NCBI GenBank assembly: GCA_947629165.1
Contig: CANRCR010000001.1
Span: 86,246 to 150,245, forward strand
Direction: 5' to 3'
Source: an uncultured Bacilli bacterium
GTDB lineage: Bacteria; Bacillota_I; Bacilli_A; RF39; UBA660
DNA length: 64,000 nucleotides
This document shows, one piece after another, positions 11,013 through 17,293 of this stretch (its first letter is position 1; each line of letters opens with the position of its first letter). A model generated the notes under the pieces. The model was not told where the DNA came from. It saw only the letters and a program-made list of their open reading frames with translations, and made no database searches. The position numbers and the translations under genes are program-made.

Positions 11013-11089
<77 letters not shown>

Positions 11090-11152: not shown

Positions 11153-11244
11153 TTTCTTGACGATTATTTGTCAATTCATTTTTACTTTTTTTATTATTTC
11201 GAATATAATAAAATTAAAGTTATAAAAATAGAAAGGAGTATTTA

Positions 11245-11385
11245 TAACTAGCGCTAGGACCAGGATGGTTGACGAGGTTAACAGTGGTCGAAAGATTCAG
11301 CGGATGCTGTTACGGATACTACGTTCGTTAGACTATTCAAAAAAGACAAAATTAAAATTGTAACAAAGGAATAGTTTAGTAGTAG
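11245..11385 (+). ncRNA. glmS ribozyme (GlcN6P-responsive self-cleaving riboswitch) in the glmS leader
   Basis: Leader contains AGCGCUAGGACCAGG...GACGAGG...CGGAUGC, which matches the conserved glmS ribozyme core blocks (AGCGCC.G..., GACGAGG, GGAUGCC). It is positioned directly 5' of glmS, as in Gram-positives. Confidence 0.65.
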
Positions 11386-11396
11386 GAGGTTATAAT

Positions 11397-13163
11397 ATGT
11401 GTGGTATTGTAGGATACCTAGGAAATAGAAAAGCAATTCCTGTAATTATGCAGGGGTTAAAGAGTTTGGAATATCGTGGTTACGATTCTTCTGGAATTGC
11501 GTACGTTCAAGATCAGATGATTCACGTACTAAAAAAAGAAGGAAAAATAGAAAATTTAGATACCCTGTTGGATTATGATACGGATACCTATTTAGGAATC
11601 GCCCATACAAGGTGGGCTACGCATGGGAAGGCAAACGATATTAATGCTCATCCTCATACTTCAGGAAAAATCACTTTAGTTCATAATGGAATTATTGAAA
11701 ATTATGCCCAATTAAAGAAAAAACTCATTGAAAAAGGAAAAACTTTTGTCAGTGAAACCGATACGGAAGTCGTTGCTTGTTTACTCGATACTCTTTATGA
11801 AGAAACCAAAGATTTACTTAAAGCAATTGCACTTTTATCTGAAAAGGTAATCGGTTCTTATGCGTTAAATATTCTTTGTGAAGATGAACTCGATACTTTG
11901 TATGCCGTTCGAAAAGATAGTCCTTTGATTGTTGGAAGGGGGAATCAGGAATTTATTTTAGCGAGTGATATTCCAGCTTTACTTCCTGTTACGAATCATT
12001 ATTATCTTTTAGATAATTATGAAATTGTTAAAATAACCAAAGAAGGGATTTCTTTCTATGATCAAAAGTTAAATAAAATTACGAAAGTAGAACAGGAATA
12101 TACGGGTGACTTGGAAGTTTCTTCTAAAAAAGGATACGACCACTTTATGTTAAAGGAAATCAATGAACAACCGGAAGTAATTAAAAACTTACTTGCAAAA
12201 TATGTTGTAGAAGATCATCTTCAAAATGTTTTCGATATCAAAAAATATCAAACCATTGAAATTGTTGCCTGTGGAAGTGCCTATCATGCAGGTTTAATTG
12301 GCAAGTATTATTTGGAAAATTTAGCATCGATTCCAACGCGTGTCACTTATTCTTCCGAATATCGTTATCAGAAGAATTTCTTTGATAAGAATAATTTAGT
12401 TATTGTAATTTCACAATCTGGAGAAACGGCGGACACGTTAGCTGCTTTGAAATTAGCCAAAGAGCATGGAATCGACACGTTAGCGATTGTCAATGTGGTT
12501 TCTTCTTCGATTGCCCGTGAAGCAGATCATGTATTTTATACGGATGCCGGTATTGAAGTTGCGGTAGCGACTACCAAAGCTTATTTTGCTCAAGTAGTAT
12601 CGTTATTACTTCTTGCCGTGGCAACCTTAAAAGAACAAGCATCGATTCTTGCTTCATTGAAACAACTACCTTCGCTTATTTCGAAATATATTCATCATTT
12701 TGATTATGAAACACTTGCGAAACGTTTTATAGGTCGGGAACATATTTTCTATTTAGGAAGAGGCGTTGACTTTTCACTCGCAATGGAAGGAAGTTTAAAA
12801 TTAAAAGAAATTTCTTATATCCATAGTGAAGCTTATCCTGCTGGAGAATTAAAACATGGAACGATTTCACTAGTGGACGAAGAAACTGGAATTATTGCGG
12901 TTGTACTCGATCATACCATTAAAGAAAAGACGATTAGTAACTTGAAAGAAGTTGCTTCAAGGGGTGCTCAAGTGGTTGCTATTACGAACGATGCTACCGA
13001 TGAATTTTGTGATGAAAAAATACTTCTCGAAGATTATGATGCAGTGATTAATCCGTTAGTTGCGATTATTCCTATGCAATTATTAGCTTATCATGTTGCC
13101 AAGTTAAAAAAATGTGATATTGATAAACCACGCAATCTTGCGAAATCGGTTACCGTGGAATAA
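11397..13163 (+). CDS. glmS: Glutamine--fructose-6-phosphate aminotransferase
   Basis: N-terminal MCGIVGY (Ntn Cys). Two SIS domains. 588 aa. RBS taggaggtt. Confidence 0.9.
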   Translation: MCGIVGYLGNRKAIPVIMQGLKSLEYRGYDSSGIAYVQDQMIHVLKKEGKIENLDTLLDYDTDTYLGIAHTRWATHGKANDINAHPHTSGKITLVHNGIIENYAQLKKKLIEKGKTFVSETDTEVVACLLDTLYEETKDLLKAIALLSEKVIGSYALNILCEDELDTLYAVRKDSPLIVGRGNQEFILASDIPALLPVTNHYYLLDNYEIVKITKEGISFYDQKLNKITKVEQEYTGDLEVSSKKGYDHFMLKEINEQPEVIKNLLAKYVVEDHLQNVFDIKKYQTIEIVACGSAYHAGLIGKYYLENLASIPTRVTYSSEYRYQKNFFDKNNLVIVISQSGETADTLAALKLAKEHGIDTLAIVNVVSSSIAREADHVFYTDAGIEVAVATTKAYFAQVVSLLLLAVATLKEQASILASLKQLPSLISKYIHHFDYETLAKRFIGREHIFYLGRGVDFSLAMEGSLKLKEISYIHSEAYPAGELKHGTISLVDEETGIIAVVLDHTIKEKTISNLKEVASRGAQVVAITNDATDEFCDEKILLEDYDAVINPLVAIIPMQLLAYHVAKLKKCDIDKPRNLAKSVTVE

Positions 13164-13256: not shown

Positions 13257-13733
13257 ATGAAAAAGATAATGTCTGTAGCAGGAGCAGCTGCTTTAGGAGT
13301 TACTTCTTTGGCAGGAACTGCGGCTATTGTTGCAAAAGGATGTATTGATGTTACCGCACATATGGTAGATAAAGGATATAAATTAAATAAGGATGCTTAT
13401 TTAGCTTATTCAAAAGAGCATAATGCATCGAAAGAAAAAGAAAAGACTTTTAAAGACACCTTATGTACTTTTCTTACTTACGTGCCGGTAGTTAATGTCG
13501 GAATATCACTTTACGTAATGCACGAAGTTACTAAAATGTTTGATGATGTAGAGGAGATATCTCCTTATCTTGAACCTTTAACAGAAAATGAAAAAATCGA
13601 ACGTGCTGGACTTCATAATAATTTTGAAAAAGCAATGTATTTTATAGAAGCTTCCGGATTAACCAAGGACGAAATCGAGTCATGTCTCGCAGAAGAAAAA
13701 GGTCCTACGTATATTAAACTTCCAACTGAATAG
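13257..13733 (+). CDS. Hypothetical protein with N-terminal hydrophobic/signal-like segment
   Basis: 158 aa, RBS taggaggtt, N-terminus MKKIMSVAGAAALGVTSLAGTAAIVA. A terminator follows. Confidence 0.5.
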   Translation: MKKIMSVAGAAALGVTSLAGTAAIVAKGCIDVTAHMVDKGYKLNKDAYLAYSKEHNASKEKEKTFKDTLCTFLTYVPVVNVGISLYVMHEVTKMFDDVEEISPYLEPLTENEKIERAGLHNNFEKAMYFIEASGLTKDEIESCLAEEKGPTYIKLPTE

Positions 13734-13824: not shown

Positions 13825-15912
13825 ATGAAACATTACGAATGTGTTCGACAAGATGGAACGAAAGATTGTGGAATTGCTTCTTTACTTACTATTGTAAAAA
13901 CGTATGGTGGCTCCGTTTCGAAAGAGTATTTACGCACACTTACTAGGACAGGGAAGAATGGAGTGAATGCCTATTACTTACTCGAAGCAGGAAAAACATT
14001 AGGTTTTATGGCACAAGGAGTAGAAGCAGATTTTCGTACTTTTTCGAATCAAAATTTACCTTGTATTGCGCATATTACCGTTAATGAAAGTTATCAACAT
14101 TTTGTCGTCATTCATGCTATTCAAAAGGAAAAAGAATATCTTGTGGTAGCAGATCCAGCCGTTGGTATTCGAACGATTTCTTTTGCTGAATTCGACCGAT
14201 TATCTACTGGAAAATATTTGCTTTTTACTTTAACGAAACCCTTATTACAACAACAAAAGAGTCCATCTACTAAAAAGATTATTAACCTCACTTTAAAAAA
14301 CCATTATAAACTCTTGATTTTGATTTTCATATTTTCCTTTATTTATCTTTTTTTAGAGTTATTGACTTCTTTTGCATTTCAACTATTTCTTGAAGAAGGA
14401 ATGATTGGTTCCATCAAGCAAAATTTATTACTCGCTTTTGTTACTTTTTTAGGATTTACTTTTTTTCTTGAAGTGTTTCAATATCTTCGAAGAGTTTTTG
14501 TTTTTTACCTTTCTAATCATATCGATTTCGTACTTTTTAAACAACTCATCGAACATCTTTTTTCACTTCCGTATCTTTATTTTAAAAATCGCCCAACAGG
14601 AGAAGTTTTAGCGCGTCTTTCCGATCGACAGCAATTACAAGAAGGAATCACCCAATTCTTTTTATCTTTTTGTTTTGACGCCTTGGCCTTTTTATTTTTG
14701 TTTTTCTTTTTAAGTTGGTTTTTAAATTCGTTTTTTTGGGTACTTATCATCGGTTTTGTATTATTCGCTTTTGTATCCTATTATTTATTTCGACCAATCA
14801 AAGAAAAAATAGCTATTTGGACTAAAGAACGTGGAATGCATTTTTCTATGTTAACCGAGTCTCTTCGAGGAATTAGTTCCTTACAACATCTTGATCTTAC
14901 TACTTCTCATAGTCACTCTTTAATCTATGCGTATCGAAAGATACTAGGAGAACAAAATATTTTACAGAAGGATTTATCTCGTTTATTCGTATTTCGTGAA
15001 TTCGTTCAAAAAATATTATTACTCATCTATCTCTATTGGGGTGGTTTACAAGTCGTTCAAGGAACTTTATCTTTTGGTCGTTTTTTTGTTTGTTATACGT
15101 TTATTCATTATTTTATTGATCATTTTTCAAATTTACTTTTCTTTTTTGAAAATTATCAATCGATGGGGATTGTTATCGATCGACTCGATGAATTATTGCA
15201 GTGTCCTTCTCAAGAATTCCTATTTGAAGTAGGTGCCTCCCTAAAGAAATGGGAGCAAGGTATATCGATTCGAAACTTATCGTATTCCTATATTCCTCAT
15301 GACTTTGTTATTCGAAATTTTTCACTCGAAATAAAACCAGGTATGCGCCTTTTAATCTATGGAGAAAGTGGTAGTGGCAAAAGTACGTTGGCTAAACTGC
15401 TATTACGTTATTTTGAAGTTGCTCCTCATACCATTTATATCGACAATACGGATCTATCTGATTTTAATCTCTTACAATTACGGCAACAAATTTCTTATCT
15501 TTCTCAAGAAGAATTTCTTTTTACAGATAGTGTTTATCAAAATGTAGTACTGTATCGGGATGTTTCGTACGATGCTTTTTTAAAAGTGGCTAGGCTCGTC
15601 CGACTTGATTTTATTAAAGATAAAAGTAGTCTAGGATATCATTACTTACTGGAAGAAGATGGATTTAATTTAAGTGGTGGAGAAAGGCAACGTATTTTAT
15701 TAGCTCGAGCTTTATTAAAAGAGGCACAATTATATATTTTTGATGAAAGTTTTAGTGAAATTGATGTTCCTACTGAAAGAAAAATTTTAAAAGATCTTTT
15801 TCATACTTATCCGAATAAGACTTTTCTTATTATTTCTCATCGGCTATCCAATCAAGATTTATATGACCGAAAAATTTGTTTCCAAAAGGAGGGGATTCGT
15901 CGTGCAGTATGA
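13825..15912 (+). CDS. Bacteriocin-processing ABC transporter with N-terminal C39 peptidase domain (ComA/LagD/SunT type; ATP-binding plus permease)
   Basis: N-terminal C39 domain (QDGTKDCGIASL... catalytic Cys; H in HFVVIHA; D in ADPAVG). Six-helix TM region. ABC ATPase with Walker A GESGSGKST, signature LSGGERQRILLARAL, Walker B LYIFDES and H-loop ISHRLS. Confidence 0.85.
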   Translation: MKHYECVRQDGTKDCGIASLLTIVKTYGGSVSKEYLRTLTRTGKNGVNAYYLLEAGKTLGFMAQGVEADFRTFSNQNLPCIAHITVNESYQHFVVIHAIQKEKEYLVVADPAVGIRTISFAEFDRLSTGKYLLFTLTKPLLQQQKSPSTKKIINLTLKNHYKLLILIFIFSFIYLFLELLTSFAFQLFLEEGMIGSIKQNLLLAFVTFLGFTFFLEVFQYLRRVFVFYLSNHIDFVLFKQLIEHLFSLPYLYFKNRPTGEVLARLSDRQQLQEGITQFFLSFCFDALAFLFLFFFLSWFLNSFFWVLIIGFVLFAFVSYYLFRPIKEKIAIWTKERGMHFSMLTESLRGISSLQHLDLTTSHSHSLIYAYRKILGEQNILQKDLSRLFVFREFVQKILLLIYLYWGGLQVVQGTLSFGRFFVCYTFIHYFIDHFSNLLFFFENYQSMGIVIDRLDELLQCPSQEFLFEVGASLKKWEQGISIRNLSYSYIPHDFVIRNFSLEIKPGMRLLIYGESGSGKSTLAKLLLRYFEVAPHTIYIDNTDLSDFNLLQLRQQISYLSQEEFLFTDSVYQNVVLYRDVSYDAFLKVARLVRLDFIKDKSSLGYHYLLEEDGFNLSGGERQRILLARALLKEAQLYIFDESFSEIDVPTERKILKDLFHTYPNKTFLIISHRLSNQDLYDRKICFQKEGIRRAV

Positions 15913-16330
15913 AAAAGTGTACTATAAAGATGCTCTTACTTTTCCGTTAGTTCCTATCTTTATAGGAATAGTATTTGTTTTTTTAATTATTTTCTTTGGT
16001 TGGTTGATTCAATTCTTTTATTATCATTCGGCACTTACTGTACAAGGTGCATTTACCAAGGAAGAAAAAATGTATATTCTTTTTCCGAGTGCTTATGAAT
16101 CTACCATTTTTAAAAGTTCTTCAGTAACGATTGCCAATCAAACGATTCCGGTTTTAACAATCGAAGTGATTGGAAATAAAGTGATCGATGGAAACTTATA
16201 TACCGAAGCCTATTTGCATCTCGAATCCAGTTCTTTTTTGCCTTATCATTATTACGAAGTTACTTTGTTAGGTGAAAAGAAAAACTTTTGGGATTATCTC
16301 ATCAGTTATGGAAAGGAGGTGATGGCATGA
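15902..16330 (+). CDS. Small membrane protein co-transcribed with the bacteriocin ABC exporter (accessory or immunity candidate)
   Basis: In-frame GTG at 15902 overlaps the transporter stop. There is a long hydrophobic N-terminal segment (LVPIFIGIVFVFLIIFFGWLIQFFYY) followed by a soluble domain of about 100 aa. No recognisable HlyD fold. Confidence 0.45.
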   Translation: MQYEKVYYKDALTFPLVPIFIGIVFVFLIIFFGWLIQFFYYHSALTVQGAFTKEEKMYILFPSAYESTIFKSSSVTIANQTIPVLTIEVIGNKVIDGNLYTEAYLHLESSSFLPYHYYEVTLLGEKKNFWDYLISYGKEVMA

Positions 16331-16470
16331 GAGTGTTATCTTCCCAAGAACTCGTTCAGATGGAAGGAGGGAGTATTTCTTTATGGGTGAGTTGTGGGAT
16401 TGTTGCTTTGGTTGTTTTAGCCGCGGGTATTATCGATGGTTTCACCCGACCATTAAAATGTAATGATTAA
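16327..16470 (+). CDS. Double-glycine-leader bacteriocin precursor peptide A
   Basis: ATG at 16327 behind RBS aaggaggtg. MRVLSSQELVQMEGG | SISLWVSCGIVALVVLAAGIIDGFTRPLKCND. The leader fits the LSxxELxxIxGG consensus. The mature peptide is a 33-aa hydrophobic peptide with a GxxxG motif and 2 Cys. Confidence 0.75.
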   Translation: MRVLSSQELVQMEGGSISLWVSCGIVALVVLAAGIIDGFTRPLKCND

Positions 16471-16480
16471 AGGAGGTATT

Positions 16481-16648
16481 ATGAAATTATTAACGACGGA
16501 TGAATTATTGCAAATAGAAGGTGGTGTATCTCTTTCGGGGTCACTTATTAATGCCGTAGGTAGTATTATTAAGATTGTACTCGAAGTAGGACGAAGTATC
16601 GGAAGTGGGCTACGTCGTTTATATGACGATTCTATGTGCACTTTATGA
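16481..16648 (+). CDS. Double-glycine-leader bacteriocin precursor peptide B
   Basis: ATG at 16481 behind RBS aaggaggt. MKLLTTDELLQIEGG | VSLSGSLINAVGSIIKIVLEVGRSIGSGLRRLYDDSMCTL. Canonical GG leader. The mature peptide is 41 aa, amphipathic and Gly-rich, with a GxxxG motif. Confidence 0.75.
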   Translation: MKLLTTDELLQIEGGVSLSGSLINAVGSIIKIVLEVGRSIGSGLRRLYDDSMCTL

Positions 16649-16818
16649 GAACCTTTTTCGTAACCCATAAAAAGACTTTTTTTCTTGGTGGACAAATTCT
16701 CTTTATTCTAATTTTTATCCTTTATGGTGTTCCTATATTATTTCATGTTGGGACTTATATCGGATCTTTTTTACGGTATGTTTTTATCGTTTTTTATAAA
16801 TTGGCACACCTGTTGTAA
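16636..16818 (+). CDS. Small two-helix hydrophobic protein (candidate bacteriocin immunity protein)
   Basis: 60 aa: ...FFLGGQILFILIFILYGVPILFHVGTYIGSFLRYVFIVFY. Located immediately 3' of the peptide genes. Confidence 0.4.
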   Translation: MHFMRTFFVTHKKTFFLGGQILFILIFILYGVPILFHVGTYIGSFLRYVFIVFYKLAHLL

Positions 16819-16891
16819 ATTTTTTGTCAAATTAGTGGTATTTCTTTTGTTTCTTTACTATAATAGAAAGTATTAGAAATGAGGAAAGAAA

Positions 16892-17293
16892 ATGACAGAA
16901 AAAAAAGATTTTGATGTAACAACTATTTACGATGTTTTTGATTATTACACTTTTGAAGGTGTTGAAAGAGATGATCCAACGGCTCAAATGATTAAACGTT
17001 TAGGAACTATCGTTGTAGCCGAGGAATTGGGAGGTATTTTACCCGAAACAGAAAAAACAGTTTATCAACAAGTTTCGGTAGAAACGATCGACCGTGTCAA
17101 AGAAGCTATTTATCGTCATCCACTCGAGATGATTGAAAAAATGTTTTTCCCTGTAACCGACGCCTGGCGTGTATCGGGTTATGCTTTGTTTCCGAACGGT
17201 TACCAACAAATTAAAGAACAATTTTTAAAAGAAGTTTCTTCCGTTCAAACATCGTCAGCAAACGTATCGACTCAAAAGGTCAAAAAACGTTAA
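16892..17293 (+). CDS. Hypothetical protein (133 aa)
   Basis: Intact ORF with RBS gaggaaag. No family recognised. Confidence 0.5.
   Translation: MTEKKDFDVTTIYDVFDYYTFEGVERDDPTAQMIKRLGTIVVAEELGGILPETEKTVYQQVSVETIDRVKEAIYRHPLEMIEKMFFPVTDAWRVSGYALFPNGYQQIKEQFLKEVSSVQTSSANVSTQKVKKR

Follow-up and report, generated by a model that had tools for sequence, protein, structure and literature searches.

Within a 64,000-nucleotide stretch of DNA from an uncultured Bacilli bacterium (assembly GCA_947629165.1, contig CANRCR010000001.1, positions 86,246 to 150,245; referred to here as the window), two small peptide genes are flanked by genes for two small membrane proteins, p143 (142 aa, 15902-16330) and orf57 (57 aa, 16645-16818), and the question raised by this locus is what these two proteins do. 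A first, sequence-only reading had proposed both as accessory or immunity factors of a class II bacteriocin. That label was found to fit best if divided between them: p143 is most likely a putative minimized HlyD/membrane-fusion protein (MFP)-type exporter accessory made up of a transmembrane (TM) helix and a beta-barrel, and orf57 is likely the putative immunity protein of the producer. For the five genes of the locus as a whole, we lean slightly toward a single translationally coupled class IIb (two-peptide) bacteriocin operon, consisting of an ATP-binding cassette (ABC) exporter, p143 as its accessory, peptides A and B, and orf57 as the immunity protein. In outline, this is an ordinary class IIb bacteriocin locus; what is unusual is the accessory predicted to be a TM helix plus a barrel and the candidate immunity protein that shares a motif with its own peptide.

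Organization of the locus

Between 13.8 and 16.8 kb of the window, five genes were found end to end on the plus strand, in the order C39-ABC exporter, p143, peptide A, peptide B, and orf57, and both small open reading frames (ORFs) named by the sequence-only reading were present. The first gene (13825-15912) encodes a 695-aa peptidase-containing ABC transporter (PCAT). The p143 gene runs from a GTG at 15902 to a stop codon at 16328-16330, and its Shine-Dalgarno sequence, AAGGAGGGG, was read within the 3' end of the ABC gene on the plus strand at 15886-15894, with a GGAGG core at 15888-15892 and a nine-nucleotide spacer to the GTG. The 5' end of p143 overlaps the 3' end of the ABC gene by 11 nt in the window and by 4 to 19 nt across all six diverged lineages. 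Its stop codon forms an ATGA overlap with the start of the peptide A precursor (16327-16470, 47 aa), and the stop codon of the peptide B precursor (16481-16648, 55 aa) forms another with the ATG of orf57 at 16645. The p143/pepA and pepB/orf57 overlaps measured 4 nt at every locus.

The ATG of orf57 was conserved as the start codon in five of six diverged loci; an alternative GTG at 16636 gives the 60-aa form originally described. At locus L013, the ATG is the start, because a TGA stands in frame 9 nt before it. Because orf57 lacks its own Shine-Dalgarno sequence and the ATGA overlap recurs across loci, termination-reinitiation after peptide B fits the data, and the translational coupling that had been suggested for this ORF was thereby confirmed across loci. 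At locus L009, both junctions, 878-883 (p143/pepA) and 1195-1200 (pepB/orf57), read ATAA in place of ATGA. The start of peptide A there would be an ATA placed 6 to 7 nt past a perfect AAAGGAGG, and that of orf57 would be either an ATA or a GTG 9 nt upstream, this GTG being the sole standard start left. These junctions suggest either that coupled reinitiation can use non-canonical start codons or that this lineage has a quirk of its own.

The same gene order, glmS, ABC, p143, pepA, pepB, the small ORF, an unknown protein of 133 to 142 aa, rpsU, and yqeY, was observed in all six diverged metagenomic lineages, and this synteny persisted where p143 identity was as low as 27%. The related contigs came from gut-type metagenomes and two metagenome-assembled genomes (MAGs) labeled uncultured Bacilli, and a scan of GTDB species genomes returned one locus, in an uncultured rabbit-gut Bacilli MAG. 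The GC content of the region was approximately 31 to 36%, and no compositional island was found at the locus.

Conservation and selection

A word-indexed search of 5.8 billion proteins returned near-identical copies only. Among 1.84 billion representatives, a full HMMER scan recovered three full-length p143 homologues with 30 to 36% identity, and a profile search recovered three more. The homologues were 142 to 144 aa in length with 27 to 40% identity, the exception being P0014, with 113 aa on a 1,370-bp contig. No match to p143 or to orf57 was obtained by tblastn against plasmids, and nothing was found in a JGI metagenome scan with p143. orf57 was intact in every lineage at 33 to 47% identity, including four loci at which it had been skipped by the gene caller, with Y27, P30, G36, Y38, G40, S41, F42, R44, and A54 invariant in the alignment. 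Against the diverged loci, identity was 83 to 86% for S21, 72 to 73% for GlmS, 62 to 76% for peptide A, 52 to 54% for the ABC exporter, 49 to 65% for peptide B, 35 to 47% for orf57, 34 to 46% for the downstream protein orf133, and 27 to 40% for p143, the fastest-evolving gene of the operon.

With respect to selection, the comparison of orf57 in the window with the near-identical locus L003 gave 5 synonymous and 3 nonsynonymous differences, with a ratio of nonsynonymous to synonymous rates (dN/dS) of 0.16, and that of L007 with L011 gave 10 and 1 (dN/dS, 0.02), summing to 15 synonymous versus 4 nonsynonymous differences. For p143, the dN/dS was 0.13 to 0.23. These values bear on the idea that one or both ORFs are chance products of T-rich, low-GC DNA, which does yield ORFs rich in Phe, Leu, and Ile in several frames at this GC content and would account for gene callers having passed over orf57 at four loci. 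One such product was identified, a 50-aa hydrophobic ORF at 16724-16876 (plus strand) in another frame over the 3' half of orf57; it contained stop codons in L003 and L004 and mostly nonsynonymous substitutions, and it was rejected as a T-rich artifact. Both p143 and orf57, however, were intact in six of six lineages at 27 to 47% amino acid identity with invariant motifs, and the excess of synonymous changes in orf57 and the low dN/dS of p143 do not fit an artifact, nor does the breaking of the alternative frame in L003. The chance of an artifact is therefore close to nil, the idea having already been refuted by the comparative data. p143 and orf57 are real genes under purifying selection, which is strong for orf57.

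When all locus proteins and family members were searched at curated Pfam and NCBIfam thresholds, nothing was matched by p143, orf57, orf133, or the upstream ORF orf158, so that the absence of a recognizable family, as first described, holds for both small membrane proteins. No similarity to EntA-im, Abi/CAAX (PlnI-type), or PedB families, for which a check had been suggested, was found, as none of these four proteins gave a Pfam or NCBIfam match to them with E values of up to 1 to 10.

Fold and profile matches of p143

Hydropathy analysis placed a strongly hydrophobic segment at approximately residues 13 to 40 of p143, with a maximum Kyte-Doolittle (KD) value of 2.94, ahead of a beta-rich soluble domain. 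A single-sequence AlphaFold2 model reached a predicted local distance difference test (pLDDT) value of 63.8 and was too poor for use. The model built on a family alignment of nine sequences, about six of them distinct, reached a pLDDT of 79.3 and contained a TM helix at residues 16 to 36, six beta-strands, a short helix at 63 to 70, a beta-barrel at 40 to 128, and a C-terminal helix at 129 to 141. Both results agree with the build originally described, one long hydrophobic N-terminal segment followed by a soluble domain. In a Foldseek search of the model against the PDB, MacA ranked first, the best fold matches were membrane-fusion adaptors, and the predicted barrel resembled solved MFP barrels. 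Searching the p143 profile against PDB sequences gave noise only, such as the TM helix of PsbH.

For profile comparison, AbpD from the abp118 locus of pMP118 and nine HlyD-type plasmid proteins (384 to 474 aa) served as reference accessories. With hhalign, the p143 family matched the full-length accessories in collinear order, over the N-terminus and first strand (E value, 0.0014) and over the barrel (E value, 0.044; p143 residues 53 to 138 against reference columns 358 to 455). After deletion of the columns of the lipoyl and hairpin domains (AbpD residues 56 to 281), p143 residues 5 to 139 aligned with positions 10 to 155 of 160 (Prob, 77%; E value, 2.1e-5). When the soluble columns were shuffled and the TM segment was kept, the null score was 20.1 ± 2.0 with a maximum of 30.7, and the observed score of 36.7 was reached by 0 of 100 shuffles. 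The soluble domain alone scored 19.0 versus a null of 10.8 ± 2.2, a value reached by 1 of 100 shuffles, and the reversed-sequence controls gave 20.8 with the TM segment kept and 11.3 for the soluble domain alone.

A further profile similarity was observed to NCBIfam NF045999, "MAG1140 family protein," a Mycoplasma model of 126 positions that is similar in size to p143 and is numbered beside NF045998. Six of the nine p143 members matched it weakly over the full model, with a best E value of 0.0012, and p143 is possibly related to the Mycoplasma MAG1140 family. NF045998 describes the Mbov_0121-family C39-ABC transporter, on which the exporter of the window scored 262 bits; a pairing of MAG1140 with that transporter is suggested by the adjacent accession numbers alone. 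Papers that mention Mbov_0121 contained nothing on a small neighboring protein.

Several results weigh against the accessory assignment. The Foldseek search of the model yielded no significant match, the best E value being 0.053, and the alignment behind the model was shallow. None of the nine p143 members matched an HlyD-type model in Pfam (E value up to 10) or NCBIfam (E value up to 1). On NF045999, the p143 of the window aligned over residues 19 to 135 with positions 10 to 126 of 126 at 14.7 bits versus a cutoff of 35. The deletion points in the reference alignment were picked after inspection of the sequences, and a plain hidden Markov model (HMM) of the full-length or domain-deleted accessories did not retrieve p143 from among all ORFs of the window. 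Lastly, the rapid evolution of p143 would suit a role in immunity or recognition as well.

This last point raises the reading of p143 as an immunity protein, in which a membrane-anchored extracellular beta-domain would bind the mature peptides at the surface of the producer, as lantibiotic LanI-type proteins do. It is a small single-pass protein beside the structural genes, with a stop codon overlapping the start of peptide A; it diverges faster than any other gene of the operon (27 to 40% identity, versus 49 to 76% for the peptides); its sequence link to HlyD is weak; and accessory proteins themselves "may be involved in immunity and/or secretion" (PMC2850506). The overlap of its 5' end, however, is with the ABC gene at all loci, which is the position of an accessory gene, the top fold matches are membrane-fusion adaptors, and the profile alignment to accessories is collinear. 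Moreover, orf57 is the better candidate and holds the canonical immunity position. We consider an immunity role for p143 quite unlikely, and the proposal of the sequence-only reading that the 143-aa protein serves in immunity is not the best one, as fold search, profile comparison, and the position overlapping the ABC gene point to an accessory.

An accessory of the PedC/BrcD type, in which an N-terminal TM helix precedes a thioredoxin fold with a CxxC motif, was also considered. The p143 of the window contains no Cys, none is conserved in the family, no Pfam or NCBIfam match to this type was found for p143, and the predicted fold is an all-beta barrel. The large repeat proteins P0007, P0009, P0010, and P0011, which had appeared as p143 matches, were heterogeneous (tail fibre, SprB repeats, Big_2) and were rejected as spurious because their E values sum many weak repeats.

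The assignment of p143 as an HlyD/MFP-type accessory thus needs one qualification: it stands outside the HlyD accessory family as curated, as a variant and not a member, because it is without the lipoyl and hairpin domains and without a match to a curated model. A truncated HlyD/accessory fragment or a pseudogene, the outcome that the sequence-only reading had set against immunity, was half found, in that likeness to HlyD-type accessories was detected and a fragment or pseudogene was not; the length of 142 to 144 aa is conserved across lineages and the gene is under selection. No gene for a full-length HlyD accessory was found in the 64-kb window. By reference to the family, we infer that the short cytoplasmic tail and the TM helix of p143 would bind the PCAT and that its barrel would lie on the external side of the membrane.

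Topology and profile matches of orf57

The N-terminus of orf57 was cationic, with a net charge of +2 to +4, and the protein of the window contained five Lys plus Arg and no Asp or Glu. A single clear TM helix (KD, 1.7 to 2.3) was followed by the most conserved stretch, Y-x-x-P-x5-G-x-Y-[IL]-G-S-F-x-R. The last 22 residues were amphipathic (KD, 0.3 to 1.1; hydrophobic moment, 0.44 to 0.47) with conserved Arg and Lys. The description of this protein as essentially two TM helices therefore stands for the first helix, the second being an amphipathic interfacial or marginal one. orf57, a cationic protein, would span the membrane once with its N-terminus inside the cell and would be translated by termination-reinitiation downstream of peptide B.

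In two-peptide bacteriocins, the immunity gene is found in the same operon as both peptide genes (PMC2850506), and the class IIb immunity proteins described so far are all membrane-associated, their mechanism being unknown (PMC8538875). CbnZ, with 42 aa and one TM domain, is encoded just downstream of cbnXY and confers 250-fold protection, and other short immunity proteins are BrcI (53 aa), EnkIaz (52 aa), and AbpIM (55 aa) (PMC6957408). The proposal of the 60-aa ORF as an immunity candidate is supported at this level, as orf57 is conserved, coupled, and similar in position and build to the short class IIb immunity proteins.

For direct comparison, CbnZ was recovered from a Carnobacterium plasmid (L027, 3614-3742, minus strand) as a 42-aa protein with Leu at residue 41, in agreement with the published CbnZ1-L41 construct (PMC6957408). 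No CbnZ relatives were found on plasmids by tblastn beyond Carnobacterium. In hhalign, residues 1 to 43 of the orf57 profile aligned with 1 to 42 of the 42 residues of CbnZ (Prob, 60%; E value, 8.5e-5), a score reached by 0 of 200 composition-preserving shuffles. A motif, [VI]GxxIGSx[LF], is common to orf57, CbnZ, and peptide B of the same operon.

The orf57 profile also matched that of peptide B, over residues 1 to 50 against 1 to 51 (Prob, 70%; E value, 4e-5) at approximately 23% identity and centered on VGRSIGSGLRR. The score was reached by 0 of 200 shuffles in either direction (z, 10 to 13), and peptide A as a negative control scored 5.7. When 2117 ORFs were searched with the orf57 HMM, peptide B ranked second after orf57 itself with an E value of 0.021; the sharing of the motif is thus taken as real because peptide B is the best non-self match of the orf57 model.

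Certain observations count against the link to CbnZ and, with it, against the immunity assignment. Among the same 2117 ORFs, CbnZ ranked 11th for the orf57 model with a nonsignificant E value of 0.63, and with CbnZ as the query, orf57 ranked fourth (E value, 0.99, likewise nonsignificant) and peptide B sixth. The similarity rests largely on a motif of 7 to 10 residues, and AbpIM showed no similarity to orf57. Between the cognate peptides, any relationship is distant at best (pepA versus CbnY, E value of 0.0032 with the leader included). Homology of orf57 and CbnZ is plausible but unproven.

Since the resemblance to peptide B is the strongest signal obtained for orf57 and the link to CbnZ is marginal by HMMER, orf57 might alternatively be a paralogue that has diverged from peptide B and stays uncleaved, acting not in immunity but as a third membrane component, an exporter regulator, or an insertion chaperone. 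The orf57 of the window even carries "LGG" at residues 14 to 16, close to the "EGG" at 13 to 15 of the peptide B leader. The GG is missing from orf57 of the other lineages, however, and in place of an acidic leader orf57 has a cationic N-terminus with a true TM helix after it. Position, size, charge, and the single TM helix are those of validated short immunity proteins (PMC6957408), an immunity gene accompanied the two peptide genes in every class IIb operon studied (PMC2850506), and the operon offers no other membrane protein. Such a paralogue outside immunity is unlikely.

Taking orf57 as the putative immunity protein, the shared motif points to a decoy as its most likely mechanism, which we infer from the sequence similarity to peptide B. 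orf57 would present a beta-peptide-like GxxxGS helix in the membrane of the producer, where it would take up the helix-helix contact of peptide B with peptide A or a receptor and so block pore formation.

A second candidate for the immunity function, and a further point against assigning it to orf57, is the conserved soluble protein encoded just downstream. orf133 (16892-17293, plus strand) is an acidic protein of 133 aa with the conserved motifs VAEELGG-LP and LFP-x-x-Y; it belongs to no Pfam or NCBIfam family and follows orf57 in every related locus. It could be a cytoplasmic immunity factor like the four-helix-bundle class IIa proteins, with orf57 as an auxiliary, given that it follows orf57 at every locus with no terminator or stable hairpin detected between the two, has no known family, and evolves at a rate similar to that of orf57 (34 to 46% identity). 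Yet orf133 has no hydrophobic segment, which sets it apart from the membrane-associated class IIb immunity proteins described (PMC8538875), and it gave no EntA_Immun match. It is not coupled to orf57, because a gap of 73 nt separates the two genes and orf133 has its own Shine-Dalgarno sequence, and it may be a core gene upstream of rpsU. A JGI metagenome scan with orf133 found nothing, and the GTDB and JGI scans gave no relative without bacteriocin genes. We regard immunity by orf133 as very improbable.

The exporter and its peptides

The exporter matched the Pfam models Peptidase_C39 (E value, 6.7e-31), ABC_membrane (2.2e-22), and ABC_tran (2.3e-25) and scored 348 bits on the NCBIfam model bacteriocin_ABC, which is under the cutoff of that model. 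It would remove the double-glycine leaders of peptides A and B and carry both peptides out of the cell. Its closest plasmid-borne relatives were staphylococcal PCATs with 31% identity, such as that of the Staphylococcus aureus plasmid CP027490.1 (L016, 334-2960). Two bacteriocin genes come immediately after these PCAT genes, no accessory gene is annotated, and the PCAT there apparently works alone.

Both precursors carry a double-glycine leader and matched bacteriocin models below the cutoffs, peptide A with Pfam Bacteriocin_IIc (E value, 1.7e-4) and peptide B with Bacteriocin_IIc (3.2e-3) and TIGR03949 (4.3e-3). Mature peptide A (16372-16467) is hydrophobic, with a GxxxG motif (GIIDG) and two conserved Cys at mature positions C8 and C30. 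Mature peptide B (16526-16645) contains the VGRSIGSGLRR motif with its own GxxxG (GRSIG) and one conserved Cys (C38). Three Cys per A-plus-B pair were found in all lineages. The Cys pattern hints that the two Cys of peptide A form an intramolecular disulfide and that the Cys of peptide B is either free or intermolecular.

Neighboring features

Upstream of the operon, a 158-aa ORF of no known family, orf158 (13257-13733, plus strand), separates glmS from the ABC gene. It was found both in the window and in L003, which is near-identical, and looks like a variable insert rather than a conserved part of the operon, because it is missing from the diverged loci L007, L008, and L011, where the ABC gene directly follows glmS. 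A glmS ribozyme/riboswitch (Rfam RF00234, 64.7 bits; 11239-11385, plus strand) precedes glmS (11397-13163), and a tRNA-Arg(TCT) gene was identified with Rfam at 11013-11089. These two were the only gathering-level Rfam matches in the 64-kb window.

Implications

Gene reality, synteny, coupling, selection, the predicted fold, and the profile similarities are in hand by computation, and the evidence for the two unusual details of the locus is likewise computational, with modest statistics. A joint proposal can be drawn from these details, namely that a TM helix and a membrane-proximal barrel would suffice for the accessories of monoderm PCATs and that orf57 and CbnZ would form one immunity family that mimics, or derives from, the beta peptide. 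We put this forward tentatively, as possible but on balance doubtful. If it is true, nature would have provided "mini-HlyD" subunits in p143 and perhaps in the Mycoplasma MAG1140 family, and the function of LcnD/ComB-type proteins would be located at the membrane and not in a periplasm-spanning channel. orf57 and CbnZ would then carry a GxxxGS helix-packing motif on an anchored, uncleaved scaffold and act as dominant-negative decoys in the manner of an antiholin.

A natural accessory cut down to a TM helix and a barrel would show which part is indispensable and would offer a small partner for structural work on PCATs. The motif common to the immunity candidate, its own beta peptide, and CbnZ provides a concrete hypothesis that can be addressed by mutation, competition for the GxxxG helix contact. 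The five genes, spanning 5 kb with no regulator, form a compact cassette that could be moved as a unit, and the two-peptide bacteriocin that they are predicted to specify would be a new one, from a gut lineage of uncultured Bacilli.

Comparison with known systems

What the accessory protein (LcnD, ComB, BlpB) does when Gram-positive bacteria export bacteriocins and pheromones has been described as unclear (PMC2850506). Like p143, the genes of the HlyD/MFP accessories LcnD, ComB/BlpB, and AbpD stand right after the C39-ABC gene and are coupled to it. Among ten known plasmid systems, the accessory gene was just downstream of the C39-ABC gene in eight, with junctions ranging from a 17-nt gap to an 8-nt overlap; the other two (L019 and L020) had no ABC gene listed within the fetched flank. 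In LcnD, ComB, AbpD, and p143 alike, the short tail at the N-terminus contains a conserved aromatic residue, and one TM helix follows. Also shared are the motif of the first beta-strand ("LTVQGAFT" versus "ITIQGAGT," residues 42 to 54 in both proteins) and a "G-x-K-x-x-[FW]-x-Y" motif at the C-terminal end of the barrel. p143 is approximately 240 to 330 residues shorter and is without the lipoyl (barrel-sandwich) domain and the coiled-coil hairpin, so that, unlike in the full accessories, beta-strand 1 leads straight into the barrel. Natural reduction of a membrane-fusion protein is seen in BesA of Borrelia burgdorferi (PDB 4kks), which is naturally without the alpha-hairpin. BesA retains its lipoyl and membrane-proximal domains and serves a resistance-nodulation-division pump in a diderm, whereas p143 would have the TM helix and barrel only and would serve a PCAT in a monoderm.

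With respect to the immunity candidate, CbnZ, AbpIM, BrcI, and EnkIaz are, like orf57, encoded just downstream of two structural genes. The cationic N-termini of CbnZ and orf57 are alike (MKNFFKKNN versus MRTFFVTHKK or MRLFLAKNKK), and the single TM helix of CbnZ is followed by IGRSIGS, to which [VI]G-x-Y-[IL]-G-S corresponds in orf57; orf57 has in addition an amphipathic C-terminal tail of approximately 15 residues. The IGRSIGS of CbnZ also agrees with the GRSIGS core of VGRSIGS in peptide B of the window. In the gene table of the Carnobacterium maltaromaticum plasmid LMA_pa (L027, 3614-4294, minus strand), the 42-aa cbnZ ORF is unannotated.

As a mechanistic analogy only, the proposed decoy recalls S105/S107 of phage lambda, in which the antiholin resembles the holin peptide, differs from it by a positively charged N-terminus, and arises from the same gene by alternative translation. 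orf57 is encoded by a gene of its own; the putative inhibitor likewise resembles the permeabilizing peptide.

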